The notes under the pieces: model-generated
Databases searched by the model: none
What the model was told of the DNA's origin: nothing
Seen by the model: the letters and a program-made list of their open reading frames with translations, nothing else
Sequence record: NC_073068.1
Length of the DNA: 44,476 nt
Source of the DNA: Escherichia phage vB_EcoD_Pubbukkers
Strand: one strand, 5' to 3'
In this document: piece by piece, positions 5,844 through 40,475 of the stretch
How the letters are laid out: every line of letters starts with the position of its first letter
Numbering within the stretch: position 1 is the stretch's first letter
Position numbers and translations under genes: made by a program

Positions 5844-5991
5844 TAGTGTGTCCTCGTTGTTGGTGTGCAACCAATATATGCAACCAATACGAGGATCGCA
5901 AGCGAATTTTGCGATTATTTTTATCGCTGATAATATTAGAAGCGTGAAGTCGAGCGGGTGGCCTGCTCTGCCACAATCCCAGGGGGATAGC

Positions 5992-6696
5992 ATGAAACTT
6001 ACTAAAGCAGAATATGACGCGTTGCCGGAAGGTATGAAGGCGCTTTTTGTTGCCGATGGCGACGGGTATAAATCAACTTTCATGACCGCAGAAGAAGTAC
6101 AGGCGGAAATCAAGGGTCTGAAAGAAAACAACGCGAAGCTGGTGAGCGAGAAGAAAGCAGAAGCCGAACGCCGCGCCGAAGCTGAGCGCCTTGCGAAAGA
6201 GAAAGAGGAAGCCGCCGCGCGCAAAAATGGCGACCTCGAAGCGATCGATAAGTCCTGGAAGGATAAGTTTGCGAAACACGAAGCAGATACATCGGGAAAA
6301 ATCGAAGCCTACCGCAAGCAGATCCACGACCTAACCATCGGCAGCGCTGCCAAAGACCTGGCATCGAAGCTATTCGGTAAGAATGCGGGCATCATGCAAC
6401 GCCACGTAATGGACCGCCTGACGCTGGAAGACGGCGAAGATGGCAGCTTGAAAGTGCGTGTCTTGCAGGATGGCAAACCGTCCGCGCTGACTATGGAAGA
6501 GCTTGAAAAAGAGTTCCGTAATAACGCAGATTTTGCATCCGTCCTGGCTGGCACGCCAGCCGGTGGCGCGCCTAGCAAACCGACGCAGGTTGTCGAAGAT
6601 GTGAAGTCGAAAATCACTATGGGCCACAGCTTCGGTATCACTGACCTTACGAAACAGGCAGGTGAAATCATCGCTAAGATGGGCGACGACGAGTAA
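5992..6696 (+). CDS. scaffolding protein (putative)
   Basis: 234 aa starting MKLTKAEYDALPEG with RBS AGGGGGA; long charged coiled-coil-like segment (AEAERRAEAERLAKEKEEAAARK); immediately upstream of the putative major capsid gene. Confidence 0.6.
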   Translation: MKLTKAEYDALPEGMKALFVADGDGYKSTFMTAEEVQAEIKGLKENNAKLVSEKKAEAERRAEAERLAKEKEEAAARKNGDLEAIDKSWKDKFAKHEADTSGKIEAYRKQIHDLTIGSAAKDLASKLFGKNAGIMQRHVMDRLTLEDGEDGSLKVRVLQDGKPSALTMEELEKEFRNNADFASVLAGTPAGGAPSKPTQVVEDVKSKITMGHSFGITDLTKQAGEIIAKMGDDE

Positions 6697-6702
6697 GCAG
6701 AT

Positions 6703-6727
6703 TGCCCGCGAAAGCGGGCAATTTTGC
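6703..6727 (+). terminator. rho-independent terminator
   Basis: TTGCCCGC-gaaa-GCGGGCAA stem followed by TTTT, just after the scaffold stop (6696). Confidence 0.65.
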
Positions 6728-6793
6728 GAGCGCGTAAATCTAAGGTAACATTAACGTCACTGGGCGAATGCTCACAACTCAAAGGATTTCGAT

Positions 6794-8911: not shown

Positions 8912-8912
8912 C

Positions 8913-10715: not shown

Positions 10716-10745
10716 TTTGGTCGCTTAAATAGCGAGTGTTAATAT

Positions 10746-11461: not shown

Positions 11462-11595
11462 TGAAGCGGGACAGGCGGGACGTCCCGTTTTGTCCCGCCT
11501 CTGTAAAACTGCATATCTACTCACTTCCACTGCATAAACTCAAAACGGGACAAGCGGGACGTCCCGCTTAGTCCCGCCCTGTAAATGTGCATACC

Positions 11596-11782
11596 TATGC
11601 AGTTTTATTGCATAAACTAAGCGGGACAAAAAGCGGGACAAACAAGGGGCGGGACAAAGCGGGACAGCACCCCGTCCCCGCCAGTGCTGCCGCGGTTTTC
11701 AGCCGATCGGGACAGCGGGACAGCACCCCAGTCTTTCAGACTAGACGGGGGTCAATGGCCCCCCTCGTCTGAGACTGAATAA
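11596..11782. repeat. copy 1 of a ~188-bp duplicated non-coding element (GCGGGACA iterons plus conserved stem-loop)
   Basis: Near-identical to 40076..40263; contains a TATGCA-gttttat-TGCATA palindrome, four tandem GCGGGACA units, two more after a divergent 26-bp segment, and the hairpin AGACGGGGG-loop-CCCCCCTCGTCT (11743-11770). Confidence 0.85.
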
Positions 11783-11845: not shown

Positions 11846-14488
11846 ATGGCAGATCAGGCAGCAGGCATCACGCTAAAGGCTGATGTTGCACAAATCAGAA
11901 CGGCAAATACTGTGCTGGACTCCTTCGCACAGAAATCCGAGAACACAGAAAACAAGGTTAAGAAATTAAACGACACCCTCGGCAAATCCAAAAAGGTGAC
12001 GAGTGACGCCGCGGGCGGAATGGAAAAGCTGGCAAACGAATCGCAGCGCGCCGCCGATGGCATGACGAAACAGGAGCGACTCGCCAACAGGTTAGGCATG
12101 TCGACTAAAAACCTGGGCTTTGCCTCGCGTAACGCCGCATTCCAGTTACAGGATATCGCAGTTACGCTTGAGATGGGGATGCCGGTACACCGCGTTATGC
12201 TTCAGCAGTTACCGCAGCTAACTGGGGCGTTCGGTGGATTGGGTAACACTCTGCGTTATGTTGCTGGCTTCCTCGGTCCAGTTGGGATCGGCCTTGCTGC
12301 GGTAACGGCAACGTTAGGCGTGGGCGTAGCAATTACGTCCCGCGCAGAGAACCAGGTCGCAGCGCTTAACAAGACGCTGGCGCTGTCAGGTAACATTTCC
12401 GGCCTAACGGCAAACCAGATCCTGGTGCTATCCGAGAACGCCGAGCGCATGGGCGGATCATTCCGCAAGACGCGTGACACAATCCAGGCGCTGGCGGCGG
12501 CGGGTGTGAAAGCGGGGGCGGACTTCGGCGCGCTGGCGAAGGTTGTGAATGACTTCGCGAAGGCGTCTAATCAGCCGATCTCTGACGTGGTTGAATCCAT
12601 CTCAAAATTGTCGAACGACCCAGTGGGCGGACTGCGTGCGCTGGCGGATAAGTATCATGTCGTTACCGAGGCGCAGATCCAGCAGGTGCAATCGCTTGTA
12701 GATATGGGGCGTGAAACGGACGCGGTTGCTCTGGCTAACAAAACAGCCGCTGCGTCGTTCTCCAGCATGACCGATGAGGTAAAGTCCAACATGGGTACGC
12801 TTGAGCGGTCGATGAACGTAGTTACATCGGCAGCTAAATCTATGTGGGATGCCATCCTGGATGTGGGCCGCGCGCAGTCCTCGAATGAGTCCGAGATGAA
12901 AGCGCGTGAGTCCTTGCAGCGCATGACCACGGCGTACTATGCCGAGATGAGGGCGGTAAACGCTGCCGGTGGGGTGATGACCGAAGCGCAGAAAGCGCGT
13001 ATTAACATGCTTTACAGCGAACTGGTCGCCCAGGAAAAGGTAGTAGCGTCGCTCACCCTTCGCAACCGTGCCGAGCGAGACAGCGCCAGCGCCGCGGATG
13101 AAGCAGCAAAGGCGAACGAGGAGGCAAACCGCGCCGCCCGCGACCGCGCCGCGTTTGAGAAGGAGTACGCAACCAACGCGAAGCGGCGAGCCGACGAGAT
13201 CGCCCGCCTAAATTTGCTGAATAAGCGCGGTGTTATTAACGAGAAAGAACTAGCCGAGGCGGTGAAGCAGGTCAACGAGCGTTACAAAGACCCCGCGCCG
13301 AAGAAAGCGGCGGCAGTTCGAGTCGATGCCGGGCTGAAAATGCTGGAAGTCGCGCGAAGCGAATTAGCCCAGCTTCGTGAGTCTGGAAAGCAGATCGAAG
13401 CCAACGCATCGACGCAGACCCGCACGCAACGCGCGCAAGCGTCCCTGAACAAGCTGATTGCCGATAATGAGCAGTTAATCACCGCGAGCAAGGAGCGCGC
13501 ACTCACGGCAGCAGAAAAGCAGCAAACGGCGGCGTTCGAGGCGGTTAAATCGGTACGCGAGCAGATCGTCGAAGAAGCCAAATTGCTGGACGCGAAAGAG
13601 AAGCAGATCAAAGCACACGCCCAGGTCGATGCATTCATCAAGAACCAGAACGCCGAGCTAAAAGCCACCGCGGCGGGATATGCGCTTTCCACTCGCGAAG
13701 CGGCTAACCTGCGCGAAGAATTGCAGCTAATTGATCGCCTGAAGCGGGTGGGCGCTAACGATACCGATATTGATCTGGCGGTGTCTAAGCTGCGCGAAGT
13801 GCAGGAAGCACAGACCGGTGCTAACGCCTCGCTATGGGATGGCCTCAGCCGCGGGCTTAAGGATAGCGTTGATGAAATGGGTAACGGCTATACGCAGATG
13901 ACGTCACTCACAAAATTCACGTTCGGCGCTATGCAGGACACGATGAACGAGTTTTTCGAGACTGGCAAGCTGAACGCAAAAGATATGGTTAAGTCCATTC
14001 TGAGCGAATTAATAAAGCTGGCTACCTCGCAGGCATTCAAGTCCATCGTTAGCGCTTTCGGTGGCGACGGCGGCAAAAACGGATTGTTCGGCGCTATCTT
14101 CTCTGGCCTAACTAAGAATGCGGACGGAGGAGCGTACGCAGGGGGCAATCTCGCGGCCTATTCGGGGCAAGTGGTAAGCCAGCCCACCTTTTTCAGTTAC
14201 GGCGTCCAGGCGTTCGCAAAGGGCGCGGGATTGATGGGGGAGGCCGGACCAGAGGCCATCATGCCACTGAAGCGCGGCCCGGACGGCAAACTGGGCGTTG
14301 CCGCTGCCGGTGTAGGCGGAGGGATGATTGTAACGACCAACGTTAACATGGGGACCGGTAAGACGGATACCAGTGTTAGCGGTCCAGACCCGCGCACCGC
14401 GCAGGCGTTCGGAAAGCAAATCACCGAGTCGGTCAAGGCCGAGATCGTGAAGGCGACGAAACCGGGTGGTGTACTTTACAAACGATGA
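11846..14488 (+). CDS. tail tape measure protein
   Basis: 880 aa; long Ala/Gln/Glu-rich predicted helical protein with Gly-rich C-terminal region; lies between the G/GT chaperones and the minor tail genes. Confidence 0.88.
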   Translation: MADQAAGITLKADVAQIRTANTVLDSFAQKSENTENKVKKLNDTLGKSKKVTSDAAGGMEKLANESQRAADGMTKQERLANRLGMSTKNLGFASRNAAFQLQDIAVTLEMGMPVHRVMLQQLPQLTGAFGGLGNTLRYVAGFLGPVGIGLAAVTATLGVGVAITSRAENQVAALNKTLALSGNISGLTANQILVLSENAERMGGSFRKTRDTIQALAAAGVKAGADFGALAKVVNDFAKASNQPISDVVESISKLSNDPVGGLRALADKYHVVTEAQIQQVQSLVDMGRETDAVALANKTAAASFSSMTDEVKSNMGTLERSMNVVTSAAKSMWDAILDVGRAQSSNESEMKARESLQRMTTAYYAEMRAVNAAGGVMTEAQKARINMLYSELVAQEKVVASLTLRNRAERDSASAADEAAKANEEANRAARDRAAFEKEYATNAKRRADEIARLNLLNKRGVINEKELAEAVKQVNERYKDPAPKKAAAVRVDAGLKMLEVARSELAQLRESGKQIEANASTQTRTQRAQASLNKLIADNEQLITASKERALTAAEKQQTAAFEAVKSVREQIVEEAKLLDAKEKQIKAHAQVDAFIKNQNAELKATAAGYALSTREAANLREELQLIDRLKRVGANDTDIDLAVSKLREVQEAQTGANASLWDGLSRGLKDSVDEMGNGYTQMTSLTKFTFGAMQDTMNEFFETGKLNAKDMVKSILSELIKLATSQAFKSIVSAFGGDGGKNGLFGAIFSGLTKNADGGAYAGGNLAAYSGQVVSQPTFFSYGVQAFAKGAGLMGEAGPEAIMPLKRGPDGKLGVAAAGVGGGMIVTTNVNMGTGKTDTSVSGPDPRTAQAFGKQITESVKAEIVKATKPGGVLYKR

Positions 14489-15910: not shown

Positions 15911-16651
15911 ATGTTAACGAAAAAGGTTAAAAGCGATATAGCCGCACACGTCGCGGCGTGTCTGCCGGAAGAAGCCTGTGGCCTGGTTGTCATGGTGGGT
16001 CGTAAGCAAGTGTTCGTCCCATGTCTGAACGTATTCGAAGACCCGACCGGCGTGCGCTCCCGCAAAGACGCTTTTACGATTAGTGATATGGCCTGGATGG
16101 ATGCCGAGGATATGGGCGACGTCGTGCGCGTAGTCCACTCACACCCGGGTCAGCGCGAGTTAACCCCGTCGTTGGGCGACGTTAACGGATGCAACGGCAG
16201 CGGCGTCGTCTGGACCATCACTAACGAATATGGCGACTTTATCGAGATCGACCCGGAAGACCCGCCGCTGGTGGGTCGCCGATTTGTTCTCGGAATTACG
16301 GATTGTTATGGCCTCGTTATGGACTGGCACAAAAAGCAGGGAGTAAATTTGCCAGACTTCCGCGTGCCGTACAACTGGTGGGAGACCGGGGAGAACCTGT
16401 ACATGGATAACTGGTACGGTGCAGGCTTCAGAGAATGCGAGGAGAATACGCCTGGGGCGATGGTCATCATGCAGATTAGCGCGCCAGTGCCTAACCATGC
16501 CGGAATCTACCTTCCGGGCAACCAACTACTACACCATATCTACGGCAGCCTGTCGAGCGTGATACCCTTCCGGGCAGGATTTTTCCGCGACAATGTGGTT
16601 AAATGGGTACGTCATAAAGACCTACCGGGGAATATCACAGAATGGCAATGA
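15911..16651 (+). CDS. tail assembly protein K-like (JAB/MPN plus NlpC/P60)
   Basis: 246 aa; JAMM-like VVRVVHSHPGQ motif followed by a Cys/His pair (ITDCYGLVMDWH) consistent with an NlpC/P60 domain. Confidence 0.78.
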   Translation: MLTKKVKSDIAAHVAACLPEEACGLVVMVGRKQVFVPCLNVFEDPTGVRSRKDAFTISDMAWMDAEDMGDVVRVVHSHPGQRELTPSLGDVNGCNGSGVVWTITNEYGDFIEIDPEDPPLVGRRFVLGITDCYGLVMDWHKKQGVNLPDFRVPYNWWETGENLYMDNWYGAGFRECEENTPGAMVIMQISAPVPNHAGIYLPGNQLLHHIYGSLSSVIPFRAGFFRDNVVKWVRHKDLPGNITEWQ

Positions 16652-26691: not shown

Positions 26692-26705
26692 TGTGTCGTC
26701 TCCGG

Positions 26706-26736: not shown

Positions 26737-26772
26737 TCAATATAATGCAACCAATACGGTTACGCAACCAAT

Positions 26773-29664: not shown

Positions 29665-29704
29665 TTCTAAAATCCTAGGTAGTGCTATCCGGCACACTAT
29701 ACCG

Positions 29705-29983
29705 CTATGCGACCAATTCAGCAACCAATAAATCGCAGTCGGATATGTTGTCGATAACGCGAACGTCAGCACCGCGGCGGGCCATTCGCTCATGTTCACG
29801 TACCTGGTGCGGCTTCGGTTTTCCTCCGGGGCGCTTCACTTCGACGAACACTATTTTGCCGTTGATGATAATAATCAGGTCGGGCGCACCTGCGCGCCCC
29901 TCCCATGCCAGTTTTCGGCAGAATCCGCCTACCTCTTTCACCCGTCGCATCAGGTGACTTTGAATCTTGCCTTCTGGTGTCAT
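29705..29983 (-). CDS. VRR-NUC domain nuclease
   Basis: 92 aa; PD-(D/E)xK-type core DLIIIINGKIVFVEVKRPGGKPKPHQ typical of VRR-NUC; start overlaps the polymerase stop. Confidence 0.7.
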   Translation of the reverse strand: MTPEGKIQSHLMRRVKEVGGFCRKLAWEGRAGAPDLIIIINGKIVFVEVKRPGGKPKPHQVREHERMARRGADVRVIDNISDCDLLVAELVA

Positions 29984-32900
29984 TACTTCCTGTACCTGTA
30001 CATGATGTCGCCTTCAGCGGCAAGCGGGAAGCCTTTCGCCCAAATAGGCAGGTCGCACATCAGCGCGCAAAGCTCCTCGGTCGTGTAGTCGTCGGTGTCC
30101 GGAACTTCGGTGATCAATTCATCGTGCACTGACAGGACGATTTCATATCCGGCAGCTTCAACGCCAGGCATGGACCACGCGAGGATATCGCGGCACAGCG
30201 CCTGTACGATGTTTTCCGTCAGTTTGCCGCCGTAGGTGTACTGGAACCCCCACTGGCGCGTCGTCTGATTCTCGCCCTGATATTTAATGCGGGTGCTGGT
30301 GCGCTTCTTGCCGGTGTCTTCGTCAATCTCGGTCGTGACCGACAGCGCGATGCCGGGGTAACTCATGATGCGCCCCGACGGCAACTCAATTTTCAACCAC
30401 CACCCCGCGGCGTTCGGGTCGTCGCGCTCCTCGTCAAAGGTTGGGTCGTGCTTCGCCTTCGTACGGACAATCTTGAGCGCTTTTCTACCGTCCGGGCGAA
30501 CGGTAGCGCCAGCCCAGTATGCTTTGCCCGGATTGCGTATTGCACACAACACCGCGTCCTCAAGCTCGGCCCAAAAGGCTACCGTCTTCGGGTGCGCCTC
30601 TCGCCACATGCGTTTAATCGCATCACACGTAAGCCATACGTTTTTCGGCAGTATGTAAGTCGGGCGCTCGTCCTTCTTGCCCGGCTTCGGCGGTCGCTTC
30701 GCTTCGTTAATGCGGGCGTACTCATAACCCCGTTTAGCCGCTGCCCAAATGTGATTGGGGAATGTGCCCTTCATGACGTCCGCCATCGCGTAAAGGTCGA
30801 GGCCCAGGTTTTTAGCGAACTGCAAGAACGCCGCGACGCCGCCACCATAGCCCAGGCCAAGCTCGCAGTTATGCGCCACCAGAAAACCAGACTTAGACGC
30901 AATAAGGAACCGGTTTCCGTCTTCCACATCAATCAGGTCGTAAACCGGCTCGCAATAGGTTAACTTCCCGTTCCAGTTCAGCAATGCGGGTAAGGGCTTC
31001 ATCGTACTTTCGCTGAAGCTCGGGCACGCTGCGCCGGTTACGGCAGTTTTCCGAACGGCTGACAAACCGAAGGTTTCCAGGCTCATAGTTGCTGTCTGTA
31101 TCGATCCGGTCCATTTCGAAGTCTGGATTATCCCAGCCGTCCAGCGTTTGAACGTAGAGAAGAAACGACCTTTTATCTCTCTGCCATTCGTCACATACGG
31201 CAATCCCACGACCGCCGTAGTTTTTATACCCTTTGGCGCGGGGGTTTGTCGTTCGTGATATTGCCGCTGACAGCCGGTTGAGCAACCGCGTTCTGTGCGC
31301 ATCGTCTGGCATTGCGTCATCGTAGCAAAAATACTGTTTACGATACCGCTTTGTCGCTTCAATTGCGCAGAGGTTGCATTGGGATGTTTTACCCCTTCGG
31401 ACGTTGTCATACCCGACGCGTCCTGGCATCGCTCCGCAATCACATTGGGCCAGCAGTTGTCTGTGCCCCTGTCGTTTTGGTAATTCGCGCAGGATAACCA
31501 GGCGTCCATACCTCTCGCCAGGGCGCGGGCCATCGTGCACCTGTCTGAAACGAGTTGCCTTGCCTCCTTCCATGAATGCGTCAAGATTTTGTGGTCTTCT
31601 GTCATCAAGACCCCGTCCACGTCTATCACTGGTTTCCACCCCATAAGGTGCGCGCCTTTTGTACTCACCCATTTTTCGCCGTTCCATACTTTATCCGTTG
31701 ATGTTACGGCCATAATATCCTTGAACCCGCCATCGGTCAATACTTGGGTATGGCGGTGCAAGCAAGCCTTCCCTATCTGGCGTAAGTCCTTGCGGTTAGC
31801 TTTAATGTAGTCCGGGTCCAGGCCGAACATCTTACCGGCAGTCTCACAATAGATATCACGACCGGCCTTAAACACCATTAGCGCGGTTTTCTCGCCAGCG
31901 ATCCAGGCAAGTCCACGCCCTTCCACGTTGGAGTAGTCCGCTACGACAAACTTCTTGCCCTTAGCCGGGATAATGCACCCGCGAACGGTCGAGGCTGTTA
32001 GCTTCGATATGTCGTACGCCCAGTGTGCGGTCCCGCGTAGCAGGGAATTGATGCCGTTGGTGAGCATGTGCGACCGGACCCAAAAAGCAACGTCGCTCTC
32101 GCCTTCGCGGCGCTTAATCTTCCCTTCGTGATCGTCGCTATACTCGCCGCGTGCCAGGTTTTGAGGCTGGAAGCCTTTACCGGCCCAGCGTAGCGTGCGC
32201 TTTGCCCCTCCATACTGAAGACAACCTCGGCGGCGACCGTCGGCGGATAGGCCATTAACGAGCGGATTGTACTTAGTCGACGCCGTGGATGACGCACCGA
32301 GGCGCATCTCGATAAGCACTTTGCCCTCGTCGGGGAAGTCTGGATCTTCCAGCAGGTCGTTAAGCGTGGATTTCTGCGCATTGTGGATTGTGAACGCAGG
32401 CGCGAGGTCGCGCAGCGCTGGCAGGAAGTCATTGCCGGTCAGCTTACCGCCGAAGCGCTCCCAGGCTTCTTCCTTCAATTCTTCCTTATGCGCCTGCACC
32501 GCTTTGATCGCGGCGTTCGCCAGGTCAACGTCCACATAGAAGCCGCGGTCATTGATCAACTGGTCGATAAGCAGGATTTCATCTTCCTTCGGGGTATTAC
32601 CCCAGTCCGGTATGCGCCAGTAGACCTCCCGCATCGCGATAATATCCAGCGCGGCATATCGCAGAAATTTGGCCCATTCTTCAGGGTGAGTCTCGCGAGT
32701 GTAGCGGCGGATTTTGTAAGTCTTAGGGGTAGGCTTGCAGAATCGTTTAATCAGCGCCTTGCCTGCCTTATCCTTCGCGTGCTCTGCGTCAACGCCCAGC
32801 ACCTGACACTGCATATCGAGGCTGCCCGGCAGCGCGTGCCGAAAGGCCATAATCATGGTATCTTCGATCTGGCTTACCGGCAGGTCGATTCCCCACTTTT

Positions 32901-33171
32901 CACGGATAACCAGGCGGTCAAACAGGAGGCCGTTAGCCATCACGATTTTTGCTTTCTTGCGGGATACCTGACGGAGCGCCTTGCGCAGTTCACGCGGCAT
33001 TGTTGGTGATTCAGTGGCATCCCATGTCTGCACGCGGCCTTCGTCGATGGCGTAGGTGCAAATCATGATCTCGGTGGTTGGGTGCTCTGCGTAGGCGTAC
33101 GCCCCTACTTTCTTCAGGTCCACCCCGCTAAATGTCTCGGTATCGAGAAACAGGCGTTCAAAGTTTTTCAT
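29983..33171 (-). CDS. DNA polymerase I family (3'-5' exonuclease plus polymerase) interrupted by an intein
   Basis: 1062 aa; Exo I FLDTETFS; motif A VADYSNVEGRGLAW; motif B split as RQIGKA | intein | CELGLGYGGG; motif C VLSVHDELITEV. Intein residues 470-768 carry block A (CLHRHTQVLTDGG), block B (ILTHSW), block F (VYDLIDVEDGNRFLIA) and block G (FLVAHN followed by +1 Cys). Confidence 0.85.
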   Translation of the reverse strand: MKNFERLFLDTETFSGVDLKKVGAYAYAEHPTTEIMICTYAIDEGRVQTWDATESPTMPRELRKALRQVSRKKAKIVMANGLLFDRLVIREKWGIDLPVSQIEDTMIMAFRHALPGSLDMQCQVLGVDAEHAKDKAGKALIKRFCKPTPKTYKIRRYTRETHPEEWAKFLRYAALDIIAMREVYWRIPDWGNTPKEDEILLIDQLINDRGFYVDVDLANAAIKAVQAHKEELKEEAWERFGGKLTGNDFLPALRDLAPAFTIHNAQKSTLNDLLEDPDFPDEGKVLIEMRLGASSTASTKYNPLVNGLSADGRRRGCLQYGGAKRTLRWAGKGFQPQNLARGEYSDDHEGKIKRREGESDVAFWVRSHMLTNGINSLLRGTAHWAYDISKLTASTVRGCIIPAKGKKFVVADYSNVEGRGLAWIAGEKTALMVFKAGRDIYCETAGKMFGLDPDYIKANRKDLRQIGKACLHRHTQVLTDGGFKDIMAVTSTDKVWNGEKWVSTKGAHLMGWKPVIDVDGVLMTEDHKILTHSWKEARQLVSDRCTMARALARGMDAWLSCANYQNDRGTDNCWPNVIAERCQDASGMTTSEGVKHPNATSAQLKRQSGIVNSIFATMTQCQTMRTERGCSTGCQRQYHERQTPAPKGIKTTAVVGLPYVTNGREIKGRFFSTFKRWTAGIIQTSKWTGSIQTATMSLETFGLSAVRKTAVTGAACPSFSESTMKPLPALLNWNGKLTYCEPVYDLIDVEDGNRFLIASKSGFLVAHNCELGLGYGGGVAAFLQFAKNLGLDLYAMADVMKGTFPNHIWAAAKRGYEYARINEAKRPPKPGKKDERPTYILPKNVWLTCDAIKRMWREAHPKTVAFWAELEDAVLCAIRNPGKAYWAGATVRPDGRKALKIVRTKAKHDPTFDEERDDPNAAGWWLKIELPSGRIMSYPGIALSVTTEIDEDTGKKRTSTRIKYQGENQTTRQWGFQYTYGGKLTENIVQALCRDILAWSMPGVEAAGYEIVLSVHDELITEVPDTDDYTTEELCALMCDLPIWAKGFPLAAEGDIMYRYRK
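30868..31764 (-). mobile_element. intein inserted in DNA polymerase motif B
   Basis: 299 codons between extein residues ...RQIGKA and CELGLGYG...; starts with Cys, ends with His-Asn followed by Cys; canonical Hint blocks at both ends; the central ~180 codons show no endonuclease motifs in the polymerase frame. Confidence 0.8.
30929..31687 (-). CDS. HNH homing endonuclease encoded in the -1 frame inside the polymerase intein
   Basis: 252-aa ORF offset by one nucleotide from the polymerase frame; contains GRLVILREL...CDCG...SQCNLC, KGYKNYGGRGIAVCDEW and DRIDTDSNYEPGNLRFVSRSENCRNR (HNH core). Likely true start at Met39 (31573); no strong RBS seen. Confidence 0.6.
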   Translation of the reverse strand: MERRKMGEYKRRAPYGVETSDRRGRGLDDRRPQNLDAFMEGGKATRFRQVHDGPRPGERYGRLVILRELPKRQGHRQLLAQCDCGAMPGRVGYDNVRRGKTSQCNLCAIEATKRYRKQYFCYDDAMPDDAHRTRLLNRLSAAISRTTNPRAKGYKNYGGRGIAVCDEWQRDKRSFLLYVQTLDGWDNPDFEMDRIDTDSNYEPGNLRFVSRSENCRNRRSVPELQRKYDEALTRIAELEREVNLLRAGLRPD

Positions 33172-33396: not shown

Positions 33397-34173
33397 TTAA
33401 CGGCGGCGACGTTTACGTGGCGCTTCGTCTTCGTCGTCGTCCTCATCTTCGTCATCGCGTGGCTTACGACGTTTACGTGGTGCTTCATCTTCGTCGTCGT
33501 CATCGCGGCGCTTGGACTTTTTGGACTTGCGCGGCTTGTCGTCTTCGTCATCGTCATCACGACGTTTTGACTTTTTGGACTTACGCGGGCTTTCGTCTTC
33601 GTCATCGTCGCCCAGGTCTTCGTCGGAACATGAAGACCCGCCACCTCCGAAGGCTTCGCCGTCTTCACGGAATCGCAGACCCAGCAAGCCTGCCCCGAGT
33701 CCCTTGCCGTTGGTATTGTTCCACGCCCAAATATCAAGGGACACGTTGCAATAACAACCGGAGTAGATCTCCTGGCCTTCAATCTCGTCGCCTTCTACGG
33801 TCAGACCTTGTTCAGTCTGCTTCTCGCCGAGTGACGTTTGAATGATAGGCTGTTTGAACGATTTGGCGTTGATATACAACATGCCTTCGAATTCTTCGGT
33901 CACTTCGTCGCGCTCGTCACCGTCGCGGACTGCGCATTCCTTCGAATCCTGGGCGTAGTGGCGGTCCATCCACTTATCGGCATTCTTCTCGGATTTCAGC
34001 TTGTCGGTGAGCACTGCGCGCGCTGCCGCTTCCACTTTGTCCACCTGCGGATCTTCTTTATCCAGAAGAATCACGGCACGGTATGCCGGTTTTTGCCCAT
34101 CCTGTTTAGGGGTATCACGTTCCCAAATTTTAAGGAAGCATACGCGCACATTTTTCAGGTTGACTTTAGCCAT
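33397..34173 (-). CDS. ssDNA-binding protein-like (DUF2815-like N-domain) with alternating acidic/basic repeat tail
   Basis: 258 aa from ATG 34173 (MAKVNLKNVRVCF) with RBS GAGGAA; C-terminal ~80 aa are repeats of D/E-rich blocks followed by PRKSKKSKRR-like blocks, ending RKRRRR; encoded by imperfect tandem DNA repeats. Confidence 0.5.
   Translation of the reverse strand: MAKVNLKNVRVCFLKIWERDTPKQDGQKPAYRAVILLDKEDPQVDKVEAAARAVLTDKLKSEKNADKWMDRHYAQDSKECAVRDGDERDEVTEEFEGMLYINAKSFKQPIIQTSLGEKQTEQGLTVEGDEIEGQEIYSGCYCNVSLDIWAWNNTNGKGLGAGLLGLRFREDGEAFGGGGSSCSDEDLGDDDEDESPRKSKKSKRRDDDDEDDKPRKSKKSKRRDDDDEDEAPRKRRKPRDDEDEDDDEDEAPRKRRRR
33408..33610. repeat. imperfect tandem repeats within the SSB-like gene 3' region
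   Basis: Two ~35-bp units (cgacgtttacgtggYgcttcRtcttcgtcgtcgtc) and two ~45-bp units (ttggactttttggacttRcgcgg...tcgtcttcgtcatcgtc) encoding the charged repeat tail. Confidence 0.6.
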
Positions 34174-34263
34174 TTTCCAATTCCTCATTTTCACATGTAT
34201 CGGGGTTATTGGAAGCCACCCCGTTCGGCTTGGTTGCTAATCTACTTGGTTGCGCCTTAGCGG

Positions 34264-34506
34264 TCAAGCGTTTTTATTAAAAAGATTTCGTGTCACGTAG
34301 TTGGTGGCGTTCTCGATCCAGCTTAACGGCGGGCGGTCGATATTCCTCTCCACCCAGTCGACGGCAGCGTCGCTATAACCGTTGTCCAGCCAGCGGGTCG
34401 GATGTCGAATCATCCACGCCACCATTAATACGCCTTGTACGCAATGCAGAATAAAACCCAGCGCGCCGAGCAAAAACATCAATAAGATTGCGAATACTTT
34501 ATTCAT
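34264..34506 (-). CDS. small membrane protein
   Basis: 80 aa with N-terminal hydrophobic helix (VFAILLMFLLGALGFILHCV); start overlaps the stop of the upstream nuclease gene. Confidence 0.45.
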   Translation of the reverse strand: MNKVFAILLMFLLGALGFILHCVQGVLMVAWMIRHPTRWLDNGYSDAAVDWVERNIDRPPLSWIENATNYVTRNLFNKNA

Positions 34507-36417: not shown

Positions 36418-36933
36418 TTAATCTTCCAGTTCGAAATAGGTTTCGACGATTTCTTTTAGCTCTTCGTGGAAGTCTTCGACGTCGTCATCTTCCAGCTTGG
36501 CGATTGATTTGATCTCGAACGATTCCAGCAGGTTGTCGAATTCGTCGTTCGCATCGTCGTCATCGCCACCGGCGATAATCGCGGCATACTGTTTGATTTC
36601 GTCGCGCATCTCTGCCAGCGGGTCGGCATCTTTCTTACCTTTGCCTTTCGCCGGTGCTTTCTTAGACTTAGCCGGTTTTTCGTCTTCGGCATCGTCGTCG
36701 TCATCTTCTACGACTTCTTTTTTAGCCTTACCTTTCGCCGGGGATTTTTTAGATTTAGCCGGTTTTTCGTCTTCGGCGTCATCGTCGTCATCTTCGACAA
36801 CTTCTTTTTTGGCCTTAGACGGCTTCTTATCTTCCTGTTTACCAACGGCAGCGCCAACGGTTTCATAATGCTTTGCAATGGTTTCCAGTGCTACTACGCC
36901 GCGAGTGATCAGGTTTACGATTTGCTCAAACAT
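36418..36933 (-). CDS. acidic/basic repeat protein (first gene of the leftward early operon)
   Basis: 171 aa from ATG 36933 (MFEQIVNLITRG) with RBS GGAG; two tandem ~28-aa repeats (KKEVVEDDDDDAEDEKPAKSKKxPAKGKxKK) and an acidic C-terminus; has its own promoter and terminator. Confidence 0.6.
   Translation of the reverse strand: MFEQIVNLITRGVVALETIAKHYETVGAAVGKQEDKKPSKAKKEVVEDDDDDAEDEKPAKSKKSPAKGKAKKEVVEDDDDDAEDEKPAKSKKAPAKGKGKKDADPLAEMRDEIKQYAAIIAGGDDDDANDEFDNLLESFEIKSIAKLEDDDVEDFHEELKEIVETYFELED
36635..36814. repeat. tandem ~90-bp repeat (2 units) inside the acidic-protein gene
   Basis: Units 36635-36727 and 36728-36814 are imperfect copies (ttacctttcgccgg...agccggtttttcgtcttcggc...atcgtcgtcatcttc...cttcttttttRgcc). 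Confidence 0.7.
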
Positions 36934-37129
36934 GGTATATCTCCGATTGGTTAAGTTTAGGTGTCGGCAGTTAACTTCGTCGGTGGCCTTAACATATTGC
37001 CAGGTTACGCGTTCTCCCGTTCGGGTAGTGGACCTGGTTATATAATCACGGTTGGGAATCCTGACACTTCGATCCGGCCCCTGCGTTACCCCTCTCCAGT
37101 TTGCGTCCTGCATCCTGTCGACGGGGTGA

Positions 37130-37159
37130 ATAATAGATTGGTTGCAGGATGGGTGTCAA
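37130..37159 (-). promoter_or_regulatory. sigma70-like promoter for the acidic-protein gene
   Basis: On the minus strand: -35 TTGACA (37159-37154), 18-bp spacer containing TGCAACCAAT, -10 TATTAT (37135-37130); a 7-bp inverted repeat CATCCTG/CAGGATG (37111-37117 and 37146-37152) brackets the -10. Confidence 0.5.
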
Positions 37160-37170
37160 CAACTAATTTC

Positions 37171-37206
37171 AAAAAAAAAAGCGCCGAGGCAAAATGCGAC
37201 GGCGCT
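37171..37206 (-). terminator. strong rho-independent terminator on minus strand (A10 on plus = U10 on transcript)
   Basis: On the minus strand AGCGCCG-13 nt loop-CGGCGCU followed by ten U; stem at plus 37180-37206. Confidence 0.65.
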
Positions 37207-37234
37207 AACCAATAAGAGACAATGAGACGGGAGT

Positions 37235-37263
37235 ATTATTACACGCGTGCGCGCCCGTTTCAA
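37235..37263 (-). promoter_or_regulatory. sigma70-like promoter on minus strand upstream of the U10 terminator
   Basis: -35 TTGAAA (37263-37258), 17-bp spacer, -10 AATAAT (37240-37235) on the minus strand; would give a ~55-60 nt transcript ending at 37171. Confidence 0.4.
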
Positions 37264-37335
37264 TATCCAAAGGATTTGACACCTTGCGGTTTTAGGTGTA
37301 GTTTCGTTGATCATTAACCAACTGAGGGCAGAGCA

Positions 37336-37665
37336 ATGAATGTAAACGACGCAATCGAAATGTTAACGAAGACTGTTTGCAGTGAGACTAGCCGGTCCTG
37401 GGCTTATACCGATGCCGTTGGGGAGGTGTTATTTGAAATCGAACGACTGCGCAGTGTCGAAAAAGAATTACGCGCCAGGCTGGAATTGCTCAACGGTACG
37501 GCGGCCAGCAAGCTGCAAAAGCACAATGAAGAAATGGAAGAATACAAAAAGCAGGTTATCCGTTTGCGCGCCGAGGGCAAATCCTGGGCGATGATTGCCG
37601 AGTTGACCGGAATTAATCAGAGCACAGTGCGCTCCTGGGTACGCAATAATAAAACTTCTAAGTAA
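37336..37665 (+). CDS. HTH DNA-binding protein (putative transcriptional regulator)
   Basis: 109 aa; C-terminal helix-turn-helix-like GKSWAMIAELTGINQSTVRSWVR; first gene of the rightward arm; perfect -35 TTGACA at 37276-37281 upstream. Confidence 0.55.
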   Translation: MNVNDAIEMLTKTVCSETSRSWAYTDAVGEVLFEIERLRSVEKELRARLELLNGTAASKLQKHNEEMEEYKKQVIRLRAEGKSWAMIAELTGINQSTVRSWVRNNKTSK

Positions 37666-37675: not shown

Positions 37676-39940
37676 ATGAGCTTAATTAAATTCGCTGTAA
37701 CACGACCCGCTAAAAAAGGCGAAAAAGCCAGGGCGGAAAACTTCCAGATGACTACCGAAGAGTTTTTCGAATTTATCAATGATGCGAAAGAAATCTCCTC
37801 GGTGCATATCAACAAGACGGAAGATAAAGCCGAGTATGCGCGCCGCAAGCGTAAGGCCGATGGCATCGTAGCGTATACCAGTGACGGCTTACGCCGCAAG
37901 ACCAGTGCGGTGGACCGCTCGATCCTGTTCTTCGATATTGACCGTACCGACACCCGCACCCTACGCCGCTGCCGTAAGGCGTTCATCGACGCGGGACTGG
38001 AGCACGTCTTCCACACCACAACCGGCGACCGCCATCCGCTGAAAGGCGGCACGCGTTGCGCTCGATTCCTGGTACTCACGGACAAGCCTGTACCGGCTGA
38101 AGACCTGGGCCGTGTCCAGTATGCGCTATTACACCAACTGGGTCTGTCAGATGTGGACTTCGACGATTGCACGAAAGACACAAACCGCCTTATGTACCTG
38201 CCACACCAGCAATCGGTTGTTAAGTGTCACTACGGCAAACGCGCCCGCGTCCGTCGTCTTCTTCGCCTGGCTGATAAGCTGGGAATGGAAAAAGAGGAAG
38301 TCCGCCGCGAACTGACCCAGGGCGACGACGCAGTGGCAGACGGCATTCTGGACTGGTGCTTCCAGGCAGGATTCGAGGAGTTATCTTCCGGGCGGGGCTA
38401 TGAAGTGCCGTGCCCTAACGAACACCTACACAGCGGCGAAGGGTCCACCGCTATTATGGTCAAGGATGGCGAGATCCGTTTCAAGTGTATGCACACCGGC
38501 AACGAGTGTTGCTCGGAACTGAATAGACACCAGCACCTGGCGCTACGTCTTATCGGGATCCCGGACCACCTGAACGTCGAACCGCACAACATGTCACGTA
38601 AGCAAATCGCCGCCATCCTCCCAGGGCTGGACGACGAGGAAGTCGAATCATTATATGAACATATTGTTGATGCGGTTGGCGACGGCGAAGAATACGGCGT
38701 GTGCACCGATGCGGATCTGGATAACGAGCCGGTTGCGCTGTTCAGTAAGCACGACCCGATCATAGAAGGCCTGGTCAACTTCAAATCGACCTGGTATCTT
38801 GCTGGCGAGTCGAACATCGGTAAATCGTTCTACGTGCTGGGGCAAATGGGTGCGGTTGCCGCGGGGATTCCGTTCGGTGGCGCGAAGGTCGTCCAGTCTC
38901 ATTGCTTCTATTTCGACGCGGAAGGTGGCGAAGCCTCTAACCAGCGCAAAGAAGCATTGCAGATTAAATATGAGCACGACCTGGACAAGCTGCACATTAT
39001 CGATCTGCAATCACGCGGCTGGGATATCACCAGCAAATCCGGCTTGCGTGAAGTTATCAGCTTCATCAACCGCACCGCTAACGGCGAGCCGGTTGGCCTG
39101 GTGGCGTTCGACTCACTCAACCAGACTGTCGCGCTGCGGTCCGCCGATGCCAAACCGTTCGACGAGAACAACGCCAGCGATATGGGTGAAGTGGTCAAAG
39201 CGCTGAAGGCCATCGCGGAAAATACAGGCGGCAGCGCGGGCGTCATCCACCACCCGGCGAAGGGTGCAAACGGCAGCAGAACCCCCCGAGGGTCCGGCGC
39301 GCTGCATGGTGCTGTCGATTCTGCGTTCTTCCTGGAACAGCCGGACGACAACCAGCCCGGACAATTGAACCTGTATCATGAGAAGTCACGTAACGGCATC
39401 AAGCAAGCGCCGCGTGGCTTCGTCCTGCTCAAGTGCAAGGTGAAGGTGGATCTCCGCAAGTCCGAGGCGTTCGAGGCGCACCAGTCCACCAGCACCGGGC
39501 CAGACTTCGGCGATGTGGTTGCCGGTTGGGACGTCAAGCCAATTGCCTCCACGCCACGCGACGAGACTCTTTACCTCGTACCGGTCGCCCTGGCACCGTT
39601 CGCCATCGAGCAGGCGAAGTCCGCGGGCAAGGCCGCAGTTAAGGAAGAGAACGCCGCGGGACCGCGCAACGAAAAAGAGAAAGTGCTTTATGCGGCCCTG
39701 GAAAAACTGATGGAAGATAACCCGGACCATACTGGTTTCAGTAAATCGGCAATTGTCCGCCAGGCGGGACTCGCGAAGGGTGGTACTTCGACGAAGGCAA
39801 TCGACGATATGGTCGAGCGCGGCGTACTCGGTTTTTATACCGATCCGCACACCGGGGCCATCTATGGGTCGTCGAATATCGTCATCAAAACGAACATACC
39901 AATCACGCTTTCGGCGACCGATGATGATTTAAAAGATTAA
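37676..39940 (+). CDS. DNA primase/helicase (AEP prim-pol-like N-domain plus RecA-like ATPase)
   Basis: 754 aa; N-terminal ILFFDIDRTD (acidic D-x-D motif as in archaeo-eukaryotic primases); Cys/His cluster (CPNEHLHSGEG...FKCMHTGNECC); Walker A GESNIGKSF and VAFDSLNQ Walker B-like segment. Confidence 0.75.
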   Translation: MSLIKFAVTRPAKKGEKARAENFQMTTEEFFEFINDAKEISSVHINKTEDKAEYARRKRKADGIVAYTSDGLRRKTSAVDRSILFFDIDRTDTRTLRRCRKAFIDAGLEHVFHTTTGDRHPLKGGTRCARFLVLTDKPVPAEDLGRVQYALLHQLGLSDVDFDDCTKDTNRLMYLPHQQSVVKCHYGKRARVRRLLRLADKLGMEKEEVRRELTQGDDAVADGILDWCFQAGFEELSSGRGYEVPCPNEHLHSGEGSTAIMVKDGEIRFKCMHTGNECCSELNRHQHLALRLIGIPDHLNVEPHNMSRKQIAAILPGLDDEEVESLYEHIVDAVGDGEEYGVCTDADLDNEPVALFSKHDPIIEGLVNFKSTWYLAGESNIGKSFYVLGQMGAVAAGIPFGGAKVVQSHCFYFDAEGGEASNQRKEALQIKYEHDLDKLHIIDLQSRGWDITSKSGLREVISFINRTANGEPVGLVAFDSLNQTVALRSADAKPFDENNASDMGEVVKALKAIAENTGGSAGVIHHPAKGANGSRTPRGSGALHGAVDSAFFLEQPDDNQPGQLNLYHEKSRNGIKQAPRGFVLLKCKVKVDLRKSEAFEAHQSTSTGPDFGDVVAGWDVKPIASTPRDETLYLVPVALAPFAIEQAKSAGKAAVKEENAAGPRNEKEKVLYAALEKLMEDNPDHTGFSKSAIVRQAGLAKGGTSTKAIDDMVERGVLGFYTDPHTGAIYGSSNIVIKTNIPITLSATDDDLKD

Positions 39941-40015
39941 ATTTTGCGCGCATTGGTCGCCGTTATGGGAATCCCCATATCGGTAAAAGATTAAATTTTG
40001 CGCGCATTGGTTGCC
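39930..40015. repeat. pair of 32-bp direct repeats (31/32 identical) overlapping the primase stop
   Basis: taaaagattaaattttgcgcgcattggtYgcc at 39930-39961 and 39984-40015, 54-bp period; each ends in an ATTGGTYGCC motif. Confidence 0.8.
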
Positions 40016-40075
40016 ATTTTGCGTGCTTTTAGCTGGTCGTATTGGTTGCCGTGTAGTGTAAATATAATGAATAGT

Positions 40076-40263
40076 TATGCAGTTTTATTGCATAAAGTAA
40101 GCGGGACAAAAAGCGGGACAGACCAGGGGCGGGACAAAGCGGGACAGCACCCCTGTCCCGCCCCGGATGACGCGGCCTGGCGAGGAGCGGGACAGCGGGA
40201 CAGCACCCCAGTCTTTCAGACTAGACGGGGGGTCTGGCACCCCCCTCGTCTGAGACTGAATAA
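40076..40263. repeat. copy 2 of the ~188-bp duplicated element (GCGGGACA iterons plus conserved stem-loop)
   Basis: Aligns with 11596-11782: same TATGCA...TGCATA palindrome, four plus two GCGGGACA units and the same stem (loop sequence differs). Confidence 0.85.
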
Positions 40264-40475
40264 AATCCGGGATTGCATAACGCACGGCAACAAGATGCGG
40301 AGTGCGGTCGTCGATGAACTAGGCAACCAACGCGAGATGCATTATGCTGAGTGAAAAATTCAGTTTGCAGTTGCAGCAGATAGCGATCAACTTTTTCATG
40401 CGCGTGATTGATATTGGTTGCATTCGTCCTGCCAGGGTGTTAGATTGGTTGCATATCAAACGAAGGAGGGCATTC

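Follow-up and report, generated by a model that had tools for sequence, protein, structure and literature searches.

A short promoter-associated box in a Dhillonvirus genome, recurrent in four siphovirus lineages, is a probable operator-type regulatory site

The 8-mer TTGGTTGC is strongly over-represented in the DNA of Escherichia phage vB_EcoD_Pubbukkers (NC_073068.1; 44,476 nucleotides, referred to below as the window), which belongs to a Dhillonvirus (HK578-like coliphage). It is biased towards intergenic DNA, overlaps promoter-like sites, is under purifying selection and is conserved, both as a word and in its architecture, across four phage lineages. The box is probably an operator-type, protein-binding cis-regulatory site through which one sequence-specific factor would coordinate expression. 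That a protein binds the box, in which direction it regulates and what the reader is are inferred from these sequence patterns. A published description of the box was not found in the literature.

Exact copies of TTGGTTGC number 18 in the window versus approximately 1.8 expected. One hundred dinucleotide shuffles gave 1.90 +/- 1.44 copies (maximum 5) and a 3rd-order Markov model gave 1.68 (Poisson P 4e-13). These counts bear out the enrichment claimed in the original prediction, including its estimate of one or two chance copies. Among the 8-mers of the window, the word ranks second in over-representation. The 10-mer ATTGGTTGCA with no more than one mismatch gives 15 matches versus 3.1 expected, and the consensus of the box over 8-10 bp is (A/G)TTGGTTGC(A). 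Exact TTGGTTGC/GCAACCAA is present at every site that had been proposed. The intergenic bias also holds: 16 of the 18 copies fall in non-coding DNA or at the very end of a gene (binomial P 2e-14), with a non-coding fraction of 6.0% in the window. The 16 copies previously counted as non-coding comprise 14 that are wholly so and two (24843 and 29721) in the last codons of a gene, with the next promoter directly downstream. The coding copy at 16518 had been regarded as the only one, and another in the tape-measure gene had been missed; both are probably due to chance, and for the latter this follows from the approximately 1.7 copies expected genome-wide. One-mismatch variants of TTGGTTGC are barely enriched in non-coding DNA (only 4 of 42), and the word is therefore sharply defined. 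The degenerate copy reported near 29709 exists, with its coordinates corrected in Table 1.

Table 1. Boxes and related features of the window; all promoters are predicted by sigma70 PWM
Position	Strand	Feature	Predicted promoter or context
5866-5875, 5879-5888	-	two direct boxes, 13 bp apart; one in spacer abutting -10, other over -10/+1	5873-5901(-) TTGCGA-17-TATATT; towards minus-strand Nmad5 'moron' gene 5079-5840
10717-10724		further degenerate copy	
13169-13176	-	coding copy	tape-measure gene
16518-16525	-	coding copy	minor tail gene
21981-21990	-	single forward box, -39..-32	supplies -35 of 21957-21985(-) TTGCAA-17-AATACT; towards minus-strand gene 21708-21929
24830-24851	.	inverted pair TGCAACCAA-cct-ATTGGTTGCA; reversed box over -35, forward box in spacer	24823-24852(-) TTGCAA-18-TATAGT, then 5' stem-loop; towards gene 24223-24777 (DUF6378)
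25512-25997	-	Dam-family N6-adenine methyltransferase	PF05869 per annotation of PTXU06 homologue gp43
26746-26772	-	two direct boxes, 17 bp apart; box 1 = -35, box 2 = spacer	26739-26767(-) TTGCGT-17-TATATT; stable hairpin and U-run (26692-26738) directly after it
29720-29729, 29708-29717	-	box at -35; degenerate ATTGGTCGCA in spacer	29696-29724(-) TTGCTG-17-TATAGT; in last codons of VRR-NUC gene, towards Lar-like gene 29491-29664
34230-34253	+	two reverse boxes; one in spacer, one at -5..+2	strong, 34239-34267(-) TTGACC-17-TAGATT; towards ssDNA-binding protein gene 33397-34194
37137-37146	+	reverse box in spacer	37130-37159(-) TTGACA-18-TATTAT, best-scoring in genome
37336-37665	+	109-aa HTH protein (HTH109)	first gene of rightward early operon
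39952-39961 (degenerate), 40006-40015, 40041-40050	+	three boxes	directly after primase-helicase stop codon, upstream of GCGGGACA array
40323-40330	-	isolated box, promoter-less	origin-like non-coding region
40413-40453	+	two direct boxes, 31 bp apart; box 1 = -35, box 2 = -8..-1	40418-40446(+) TTGCAT-17-TAGATT; rightward operon from 40476 downstream
40978-40987	-	degenerate box GAAACCAA (TGAAACCAAT)	over -35 of 40977-41005(+), inside gene 40791-41066

Promoter-like sites were defined by a sigma70 PWM score of at least 9. Such sites are overlapped by 14 of 16 boxes (P 2e-7) and by 9 of 10 clusters (P 3e-5), whereas random non-coding windows of 8 nt overlap them in 24.6% of cases. The location of the boxes in sigma70-like promoters, as originally proposed, is thus upheld, as is the observation that the motif abuts a TATAnT -10 hexamer or provides a TTGC -35. 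All box-bearing predicted promoters of the window are aimed at adjacent genes. Among their targets, the gene at 21708-21929 has a counterpart in relatives annotated as a Cor superinfection-exclusion protein or lipoprotein. The best-scoring promoter would be a leftward P_L-like early promoter, and its box, read forward, belongs to a weak rightward promoter (TTGCAG-16-TAATTT). Of the three boxes directly after the primase-helicase stop codon, only that at 40041-40050 has a promoter-like partner (TTGGTT-15-TATAAT).

Boxes of the window lie over the -35, in the spacer or at the -10/+1 and occur in both orientations. Judged on predicted promoters, this placement is operator geometry and no fixed promoter element. 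When the four lineages are pooled, the 48 non-coding boxes include 29 that overlap a good predicted promoter, 21 of these forward and eight reversed. The remaining 19 (approximately 40%) overlap none and belong mostly to the post-primase cluster of Edwardsiella phage eiAU. The promoter-overlapping boxes fall into at least three positional classes, with both orientations and no fixed distance to the -10. A forward box at exactly -39..-32, with TTGC at -35..-32, is the commonest geometry (9/29) and suits a promoter element equally well. Five boxes of either orientation are found at -22/-21..-15/-14 and six at -8..+2. Of the earlier proposal of a promoter class or regulator site, the real, selected and promoter-associated word is retained. 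A promoter class of fixed geometry is not, as boxes are also found in the spacer, at the -10/+1, reversed in near-consensus promoters or with no promoter. Transcript mapping for these phages was not found in the literature.

Comparison of Dhillonviruses revealed changes at 2 of 384 box positions (0.5%) versus 319 of 2528 flank positions (12.6%; Fisher 2e-18), i.e., a 25-fold lower rate that is confined to the 8-mer. Inter-box spacers diverge while the words remain exact. In PTXU06, both boxes of the 5866..5888 site are exact and their spacing is 14 bp. In AV129 and HK578, the 23-nt spacer at 40413-40453 has diverged heavily, with both boxes and their spacing retained. The isolated box at 40323-40330 is exact in relatives, in which 11-16 of approximately 60 flanking bases differ. 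Degenerate copies of the window may be intact elsewhere: the box at 39952-39961, which reads ATTGGTCGCC in the window, is exact in PTXU06 and AV129, and the one at 40978-40987 is exact GCAACCAA in PTXU06, AV129 and HK578.

The word is also enriched in Klebsiella phage VLCpiS11a (13 copies versus 1.3 expected), Serratia phage Smarc3 (13 versus 1.6) and eiAU (23 versus 1.9), and none of 100 shuffles reached the observed count in any of them. Boxes occupy syntenic sites across the lineages, namely the ssDNA-binding protein gene promoter, the junction from VRR-NUC to the Lar-like gene, the spanin/scaffold moron slot and the 3' end of the primase-helicase gene. In VLCpiS11a, a reversed box lies in the spacer of the ssDNA-binding protein gene promoter, and the arrangement of a double box before the Lar-like gene is found in both VLCpiS11a and eiAU. 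Box clusters without an overlapping promoter adjoin the primase-helicase gene, and a cluster at or just past its 3' end is present in all four box-positive lineages. The box is absent from Jerseyvirus, Kagunavirus and STP-1-like relatives. These have plain TTGACA/TATAAT promoter pieces, and a substitute motif was not found in them, so that the box appears to be an added control layer.

The box could alternatively be a promoter element, that is, an extended lineage-specific -35 (TTGG plus TTGCAn) for the host sigma70 RNA polymerase, possibly with a phage cofactor. Its spacer, +1 or reversed copies would then be secondary. This reading, modelled on T4 MotA boxes and the TTGC repeats of lambda CII, is rather unlikely. 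It accommodates the commonest geometry, which is combined with a good -10 (TATAGT, TATATT) at 17 bp in three lineages, as well as the forward orientation bias (21:8). The -35 hexamers supplied by boxes (TTGCAA, TTGCGT, TTGCTG, TTGCAT) are sub-optimal, which would fit activator dependence, and the immediate-early-looking promoters 37235-37263 and 37276-37304 are box-free. However, sigma70 does not read positions -39..-36, yet TTGG there is as invariant as TTGC, and the positions -31 and -30 following TTGC vary. Conservation is accordingly not limited to the sigma region 4 positions (-35..-30). Of the 14 promoter-overlapping boxes in the window, eight have the predicted -35 hexamer outside the box, including those of two near-consensus TTGACA/TTGACC promoters, in which the boxes are reversed. 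Promoter-less clusters are present, AV129 keeps the 40042 box (40041-40050) and has lost the neighbouring -10, and no cofactor common to the box-positive phages was found.

A mainly replicative role, as an iteron or initiator loading site at an origin beside the primase-helicase gene, is less probable still. Promoter copies would in this case couple transcription to replication, like DnaA boxes or plasmid Rep iterons/operators. The clusters themselves are in line with such a role: six boxes at 39952-40453 in the window, four at 39411-39532 in Smarc3, a cluster at 4793-5323 in VLCpiS11a and nine boxes in approximately 800 nt (26868-27640) of eiAU amid AT-rich tracts and inverted repeats. Another five eiAU boxes precede the tape-measure gene, in a gap equivalent to the annotated 'region A' of SO-1. 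Against it, the spacing in the clusters is irregular (16-101 bp), and the separate, regular GCGGGACA array of Dhillonvirus regions A and B looks like true iterons. Most boxes of the window are at promoters spread over 35 kb. The primase-helicase has no sub-region that sets the box-positive phages apart from box-negative STP-1. Over its C-terminal 100 residues, conservation among the box-positive phages is only 24-33%, which makes this protein a poor fit as the reader of an invariant 8-mer. In a third alternative, which is very improbable, the box would be kept for recombination and not for a regulator to bind, either as the conserved core of a mobile promoter cassette or as a sequence at module boundaries that promotes accessory-gene exchange between phages. 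Boxes do flank the opposite-strand 'moron' genes Nmad5 and Cor-like in the window and the YebO-like, Tad2-like and spanin/scaffold slot in VLCpiS11a, whose box promoters at 19001 and 34812 are near-duplicates; an inserted gene changes the content of PTXU06 downstream of site A, and a 5' stem-loop follows several box promoters. But 8-10 bp is too short for efficient homologous exchange, and recombination leaves unexplained the positional precision relative to -35/-10 and the 25-fold lower substitution rate of the 8-mer. Boxes are also found at promoters of core replication genes that are syntenic across genera.

Several known systems resemble the box, and each differs from it in some respect. 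The stoperators of mycobacteriophages L5 and Bxb1 (L5 gp71) are a short asymmetric word in many near-identical, nearly always intergenic copies throughout the genome. They show an orientation bias relative to transcription, and some copies overlap promoters. Their reader is the repressor of the prophage in temperate phages, and their effect is on polymerase during elongation. The box is likewise a short word in many near-identical, mainly intergenic, genome-wide and orientation-biased copies under purifying selection, and its sites overlap the -35, spacer, -10 or +1 as those of operators do. Unlike stoperators, most boxes lie over core promoter elements and the word is kept across genera; the relatives are treated as virulent, and no repressor was found. 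As in T4 MotA boxes or the lambda CII site TTGC-N6-TTGC, the word replaces or straddles a weak -35 next to a normal sigma70 -10. Position and orientation are fixed in those sites, however, and the phage activator is known, whereas boxes may also be reversed, lie in the spacer or at +1, or lack a promoter. The asymmetric 8-9 bp word, clustered by a replication gene and with single promoter copies in either orientation, also resembles DnaA boxes and Rep iterons. The sequence is unrelated to the DnaA box, the consensus of which we take to be TTWTNCACA: TTGGTTGCA and TTATCCACA match at 4 of 9 positions. Rep iterons differ in that Dhillonviruses have the iteron-like array separately, and no initiator with a DNA-binding domain conserved in step with the box was found, the primase-helicase termini being poorly conserved. 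PeSL cassettes of T4-type phages share the compact promoter with a 5' stem-loop between genes, often before accessory genes. They are defined by the whole promoter-hairpin unit, whereas here only the 8-10 bp box is conserved and the spacer, -10 and hairpin vary.

For an operator-type site, the following mode of action may be proposed. In this phage group, numerous transcription units would have the box overlying their core promoter. At weak promoters, a forward box at -39..-32 would provide the TTGC of the -35, often with a second box in the spacer 12-17 bp downstream. Such an arrangement could reflect either box-dependent activation or a promoter and operator in one piece. At strong near-consensus promoters (37130-37159 and that of the ssDNA-binding protein gene), boxes are often reversed and occupy the spacer or the start site, where a bound protein would exclude RNA polymerase. 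An origin-proximal control region might be marked by this factor as well, as the boxes clustered next to the primase-helicase gene suggest.

HTH109, which had been put forward as a candidate reader, is a plausible DNA-binding protein. It comprises a long helix and a C-terminal HTH, with the C-terminal 60 residues or so nearly invariant in 24 homologues. HTH109 may belong to a LuxR/GerE, resolvase-type or sigma region-4 HTH family. Above-cutoff Pfam scores (HTH_23, HTH_28 and Sigma70_r4_2) are limited to residues 65-105. The AF2 model has a pLDDT of 86, Foldseek matches to it cover just 34-46 residues (E about 1, rmsd about 1 A), and a PDB profile search gave nothing meaningful. The family is confined to Dhillonvirus-like contigs and was undetected by tblastn in Smarc3 and eiAU and by tblastn and profile HMM in VLCpiS11a. 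Missing from three of the four box-positive lineages, HTH109 cannot be the general reader, but it may read the box in Dhillonviruses. XRE-type regulators encoded at the same position were rejected as well, as box-negative phages have them too and the recognition helix varies among those of box-positive phages. A cognate repressor was accordingly found in neither family, and a homologous activator of the MotA or CII type was not found among approximately 30 proteins scanned. Bacterial genomes scanned for the double-box arrangement gave no Enterobacterales among the matches listed, which lends no support to a host regulon. The general reader could be encoded by the host, as a very conserved protein, or by the phage, as a protein that cannot be recognised from its sequence.

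Dhillonviruses (HK578, the BASEL phages Bas14-17, SECphi18) are standard tools in the study of anti-phage defence and in phage therapy. The box provides a testable map of approximately ten predicted promoters/operators, including those of the anti-defence or 'moron' genes (Cor-like, Lar-like and Nmad5, and Tad2-like in the Klebsiella relative), and box DNA can serve as bait for finding the regulator. A host reader would mean that virulent siphoviruses use a host factor as a global timing switch; a phage reader would represent a regulator family currently missed by sequence methods.

Comparison of non-structural proteins between box-positive and box-negative genomes revealed no cofactor or regulator tracking the box except the Dam-family methylase, whose gene is the only non-structural one that every box-positive lineage has and every box-negative lineage lacks. 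The box and the methylase are further co-distributed with a loss of GATC avoidance, which hints at a functional link of phage self-methylation to the box regulatory layer. One further reading, tentative and well short of an even chance, is that the invariant 8-mer was retained for promoter control, and possibly origin control, in no fewer than four siphovirus lineages infecting five enterobacterial genera, while the phages' early regulators were replaced (HTH_23-type versus XRE-type). The reader would then be either a DNA-binding protein conserved in the hosts or a cryptic protein of the phages, exploited by these virulent phages as a global switch. The system appears to be gained or lost together with the Dam methylase and relaxed GATC avoidance. 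The joint distribution of the box with Dam and GATC usage is a clean comparative observation in its own right and calls for an explanation.

The exact 8-mer TTGGTTGC (reverse complement GCAACCAA), called the box here, occurs 18 times in the window. Shuffled sequences give an expectation of 1.9 copies (maximum 5) and a third-order Markov model 1.7, and the box is among the two most over-represented 8-mers in the window and in phages PTXU06, AV129 and HK578. The enrichment claimed by the original prediction is thus confirmed against both backgrounds, and all of its box coordinates are correct. Of its 16 non-coding copies, 14 are fully non-coding; the other two fall within the final codons of a gene, immediately ahead of the following promoter. 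A second coding copy, at 13169, had been overlooked beside the one noted. Since non-coding DNA makes up 6% of the genome, this placement has P = 2e-14. Three further degenerate copies are found at 39952, 10717 and 40978. The word is unusually sharp, because variants with one mismatch show little enrichment in non-coding DNA (4/42), and beyond the 8-mer only positions -1 (A in 10/14) and +9 (A in 8/14) are informative.

In over-representation the box is equalled by the words ACGGCAGC, ACGGCAAC and CGGCAGCG (22-29 copies versus 3-5 expected), observed over the whole window and also for the comparison loci L001, L002, L006, L008 and L009, the last being Klebsiella phage VLCpiS11a. They are mostly coding and strand-biased, ACGGCARC standing on the plus strand in 34/46 cases, and related words are also enriched in Jerseyvirus and the Klebsiella phage.

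The window is an essentially complete 44.5-kb genome of a Dhillonvirus (an E. coli siphovirus of the HK578 type). It shares 88-92% identity with phages including AV129, PTXU06, CEC_Kaz_2018 and Bas15, and its gene functions were transferred from annotated relatives. In alignments of the window with PTXU06, AV129 and HK578, the boxes remain exact while their surroundings drift. Changed positions amount to 2/384 within boxes versus 319/2528 in flanking non-coding DNA (Fisher 2e-18), a contrast inflated at most about two-fold by ascertaining the boxes in the window. About 10 positions of the 23-nt spacer between the boxes at 40.4 kb differ among relatives, as do 4/9 spacer positions at 26.7 kb; the 5.8-kb boxes move from a 13-bp to a 14-bp spacing. 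AV129 has lost the -10 beside the 40042 box and retained the box.

Layout of the window and positions of boxes and repeats (nt unless kb is stated)
Feature	Position	Strand	Remark
Structural genes	1-24 kb	+	with two minus-strand 'moron' slots
Replication and accessory operon	23.6-37.1 kb	-	annotation transfer
Operon of HTH109, primase-helicase, 530-nt non-coding gap, small genes, lysis genes and phosphoesterase	37.3-44.4 kb	+
Box supplying the -35	21982, 26764, 29721, 40414		PWM scan
Box in spacer adjoining the -10	5880, 24831, 26747		PWM scan
Box over -10/+1	5867, 40445		PWM scan
Reversed box in strong TTGACC/TTGACA promoter	34230/34246; 37138		PWM scan
Inverted box pair	24830-24851
GCGGGACA(G/A) direct-repeat arrays	40101-40202; 11466-11722		each 6 forward and 1 inverted copy
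31-bp direct repeat AAAAGATTAAATTTTGCGCGCATTGGT(C/T)GCC	39931-39961; 39986-40016		first copy overlaps primase-helicase stop codon

The predicted association with sigma70-like promoters holds. A strict consensus scan recovers only two box promoters, the others requiring a position weight matrix (PWM). In the PWM scan, 9/10 box clusters overlap a promoter-like site pointing at the adjacent genes, and sites with a score of 9 or more are overlapped by 14 of the 16 boxes, compared with 24.6% of windows drawn at random from non-coding DNA (P = 2e-7). The genome's best-scoring promoter, 37130-37159 (TTGACA-18-TATTAT), is overlapped by a box; two promoter-like sites of the divergent early region, 37235-37263 and 37276-37304, are without one. 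The promoters overlapped by eight boxes have their -35 outside the box, so the TTGC within the word is not the sole source of the association. When four lineages are pooled, 29/48 non-coding boxes overlap a good promoter: nine are forward at exactly -39..-32, five are at about -22..-14 and of either orientation, and the range -8..+2 accounts for six. The boxes without a good promoter are chiefly the nine in a 900-nt post-primase region of Edwardsiella phage eiAU.

Copy numbers were 18-21 in each of the six Dhillonvirus genomes examined. Strong enrichment of the box extends to three distant lineages with proteins sharing only 25-70% identity with those of the window: VLCpiS11a (13 copies versus 1.3 expected), Serratia phage Smarc3 (13 versus 1.6) and eiAU (23 versus 1.9). 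In Smarc3, only about six copies fall in non-coding DNA or at the 3' end of the primase-helicase gene; the others lie within annotated genes, and those at 10647 and 10668 encode a repeated LLVA stretch of a spanin. Individual sites recur as well. The promoter of the ssDNA-binding-protein gene carries a reversed box in its spacer in the window and VLCpiS11a alike, and the VRR-NUC/Lar-like gene junction has a box pair (or a box and a degenerate box) in the window, VLCpiS11a and eiAU. The layout at window 29708-29729, with one box at the -35 and another in the spacer (12-bp), is repeated exactly at eiAU 42944/42932. Between the spanin and scaffold genes, the opposite-strand slot contains a box promoter, and a box cluster stands at the 3' end of the primase-helicase gene or just after it.

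Counts are at chance level in Salmonella Jerseyvirus (1), Salmonella STP-1 (2), E. coli phage K1G (3), Raoultella RP180 (1) and six further metagenomic lineages. The intergenic regions of these box-negative relatives hold no substitute word, only terminator stems and ordinary TTGACA/TATAAT fragments. Host identity is rejected as the cause of box presence, as K1G infects E. coli yet is without boxes. Among the matches listed by double-box scans of viral contigs and of bacterial genomes, most were chance pairs and apparent tandem repeats; the 80 bacterial matches listed included no Enterobacterales.

Taken together, the data point to a protein-binding, operator-type site rather than a simple promoter hexamer, because the word is sharp, under selection, placed at several core-promoter positions in both orientations and present both in otherwise consensus promoters and in promoter-less clusters. 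A pure promoter element would explain the strong preference for -39..-32 forward, which shows that the word also serves as, or has co-evolved with, a weak -35, but it fails on the boxes at other positions, in both orientations, in consensus promoters and in promoter-less clusters. A replication iteron is suggested by the clusters beside the primase-helicase gene; this reading and that of a recombination cassette likewise explain part of the data and fail on specific points. For an operator-type site, the most economical model is that one factor would occlude strong early promoters, and the same factor might activate the weak TTGC promoters or merely be co-sited with them. Judging by the origin-proximal clusters, such a factor may also act in the control region next to the primase-helicase gene.

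The factor binding the box (the reader) was sought among the phage proteins. HTH109, the 109-aa helix-turn-helix (HTH) protein at 37336-37665 proposed by the original prediction, is a credible DNA-binding protein judging by Pfam and its structural model. Its residues 65-105 match HTH_23, HTH_28 and Sigma70_r4_2, and the AlphaFold model (pLDDT 86) has a long helix followed by a C-terminal HTH. The latter superposes at ~1 A on LuxR/GerE-type, resolvase-type and DeoR DNA-binding domains, with no significant whole-protein match. The C-terminal 60 residues are near-invariant across 24 homologues, even where the N-terminus is replaced. As a universal reader HTH109 is rejected: its family, confined to Dhillonvirus-sized contigs, is undetectable in VLCpiS11a, Smarc3 and eiAU. 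The tblastn and profile-HMM searches were blank in VLCpiS11a and Jerseyvirus, tblastn was blank in Smarc3, eiAU and STP-1, and syntenic-gene comparison failed too. An XRE/Cro-type protein occupies the position of HTH109 in VLCpiS11a, Smarc3 and eiAU. The XRE/Cro-type gp14 is rejected in turn, because each sampled box-negative lineage has homologues just as similar and because the recognition helix differs among box-positive phages. The primase-helicase, of which relatives exist in ~640 genomes, is rejected too: that of STP-1 is 55% identical to that of VLCpiS11a, yet STP-1 is box-less; this protein has no discriminating sub-region, and its termini are poorly conserved. A further rejected candidate is the 380-aa phosphoesterase, whose N-terminal HTH is marginal and which is missing from VLCpiS11a, Smarc3 and eiAU. 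To our knowledge, the full invariant 8-mer fits none of Sigma54, DnaA, PdhR/ExuR-type ATTGGT half-sites, NtrC or CytR (GTTGCATT octamers). The word is invariant across lineages with exchanged early regulators, as would suit a reader that is either a very conserved (host) factor or a phage protein that escapes sequence comparison. Directly before the box, all HTH109-bearing loci have A (A133/G19) and all XRE-bearing box-positive loci G (G89/A26), a split compatible with different readers in the two groups and confounded with phylogeny.

Two phyletic profiles, comparing four box-positive with 2-4 box-negative genomes and using queries from the window only (curated proteins by tblastn; all six-frame ORFs by blastp), left a single non-structural gene with a box-matching distribution, the 161-aa Dam-family methyltransferase at 25512-25997. 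A PDB sequence search with this protein found no match. GATC is normal or elevated in box-positive genomes (156-275 observed versus 150-173 expected) and avoided in box-negative ones (4-11 versus ~165). The relatives (ten genomes, 42 loci) split into those with a Dam-family methylase and normal GATC and those with no Dam and extreme GATC avoidance, and box presence tracks this split. GATC is absent from the box, and a mechanism tying it or Dam to the box is not apparent. Helicase and exonuclease identity groups VLCpiS11a and Smarc3 with box-negative phages; therefore, no more than one or two joint losses may underlie the pattern.

Full-text searches of the literature on the box word and Dhillonvirus/HK578 promoters, and of the genome papers on eiAU and Ioannina, yielded neither a description of the motif nor transcript mapping for any of these phages. 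GenBank annotation has only generic sigma70 promoters (HK578) and GCGGGACA repeat regions (SO-1). That the box is a new example of a phage-wide regulatory box, a known kind of feature, is well supported; its points of interest are the unusually broad conservation and the missing reader.

Box promoters are predicted to drive a Tad2-like (anti-Thoeris) gene and a YebO-like opposite-strand gene in VLCpiS11a (19001-19326, 28861-29166) and Cor-like, Lar-like and Nmad5 genes in the window, so accessory or anti-defence genes would often be under box control. Box promoters are directly followed by a 5' stem-loop at 26692-26738 (-) and, similarly, at 24790-24815 and 34195-34225. The 26.7-kb stem-loop has a U-run (-18 kcal/mol), giving the order promoter, then terminator-like hairpin, an arrangement that resembles promoter-stem-loop cassettes. 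The strong box-less promoter at 37235-37263 (minus strand; TTGAAA-17-AATAAT) runs straight into a stable hairpin with a U10 run (-17 kcal/mol, z = -3.1, window 37165-37263), which predicts a terminated transcript of ~60 nt, a small RNA or leader. This stretch is near-invariant in PTXU06 and AV129 and includes the box-like AUUGGUUAGC. Within the ~190-nt leader downstream of the P_L-like promoter, a 52-nt stretch at 37046-37097 shares 94% identity with a piece of DNA that carries no annotation in phage tunus, an unrelated member of the Drexlerviridae (NC_049816, 30559-30610). An Rfam search of the window found no known RNA families.

The GCGGGACA(G/A) repeats total 17 in the window versus 1.7 expected. 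Their arrays correspond to 'region A' and 'region B', annotated as possible origins in Sodalis phage SO-1, and are Dhillonvirus-specific, with no enrichment in VLCpiS11a or Jerseyvirus. In HK578 the 31-bp repeat has only one copy. Neither PHROGs nor Pfam assigned the small early proteins a function. Gene 36418-36933 (-), first in the leftward operon, encodes a very acidic product with two KKEVVEDDDDDAEDEKPAKSKK motifs and homologues in 8/8 lineages examined; this product might mimic DNA or bind polymerase or the nucleoid. The DNA polymerase ORF (29983-33171, minus strand) has 1062 aa and its PTXU06 and Bas15 counterparts 763 aa; a nested 252-aa ORF (30929-31687) lies at the position of the intron-encoded HNH endonuclease of the SO-1 annotation, and a high-scoring promoter-like site is found in this region at 31712-31740.
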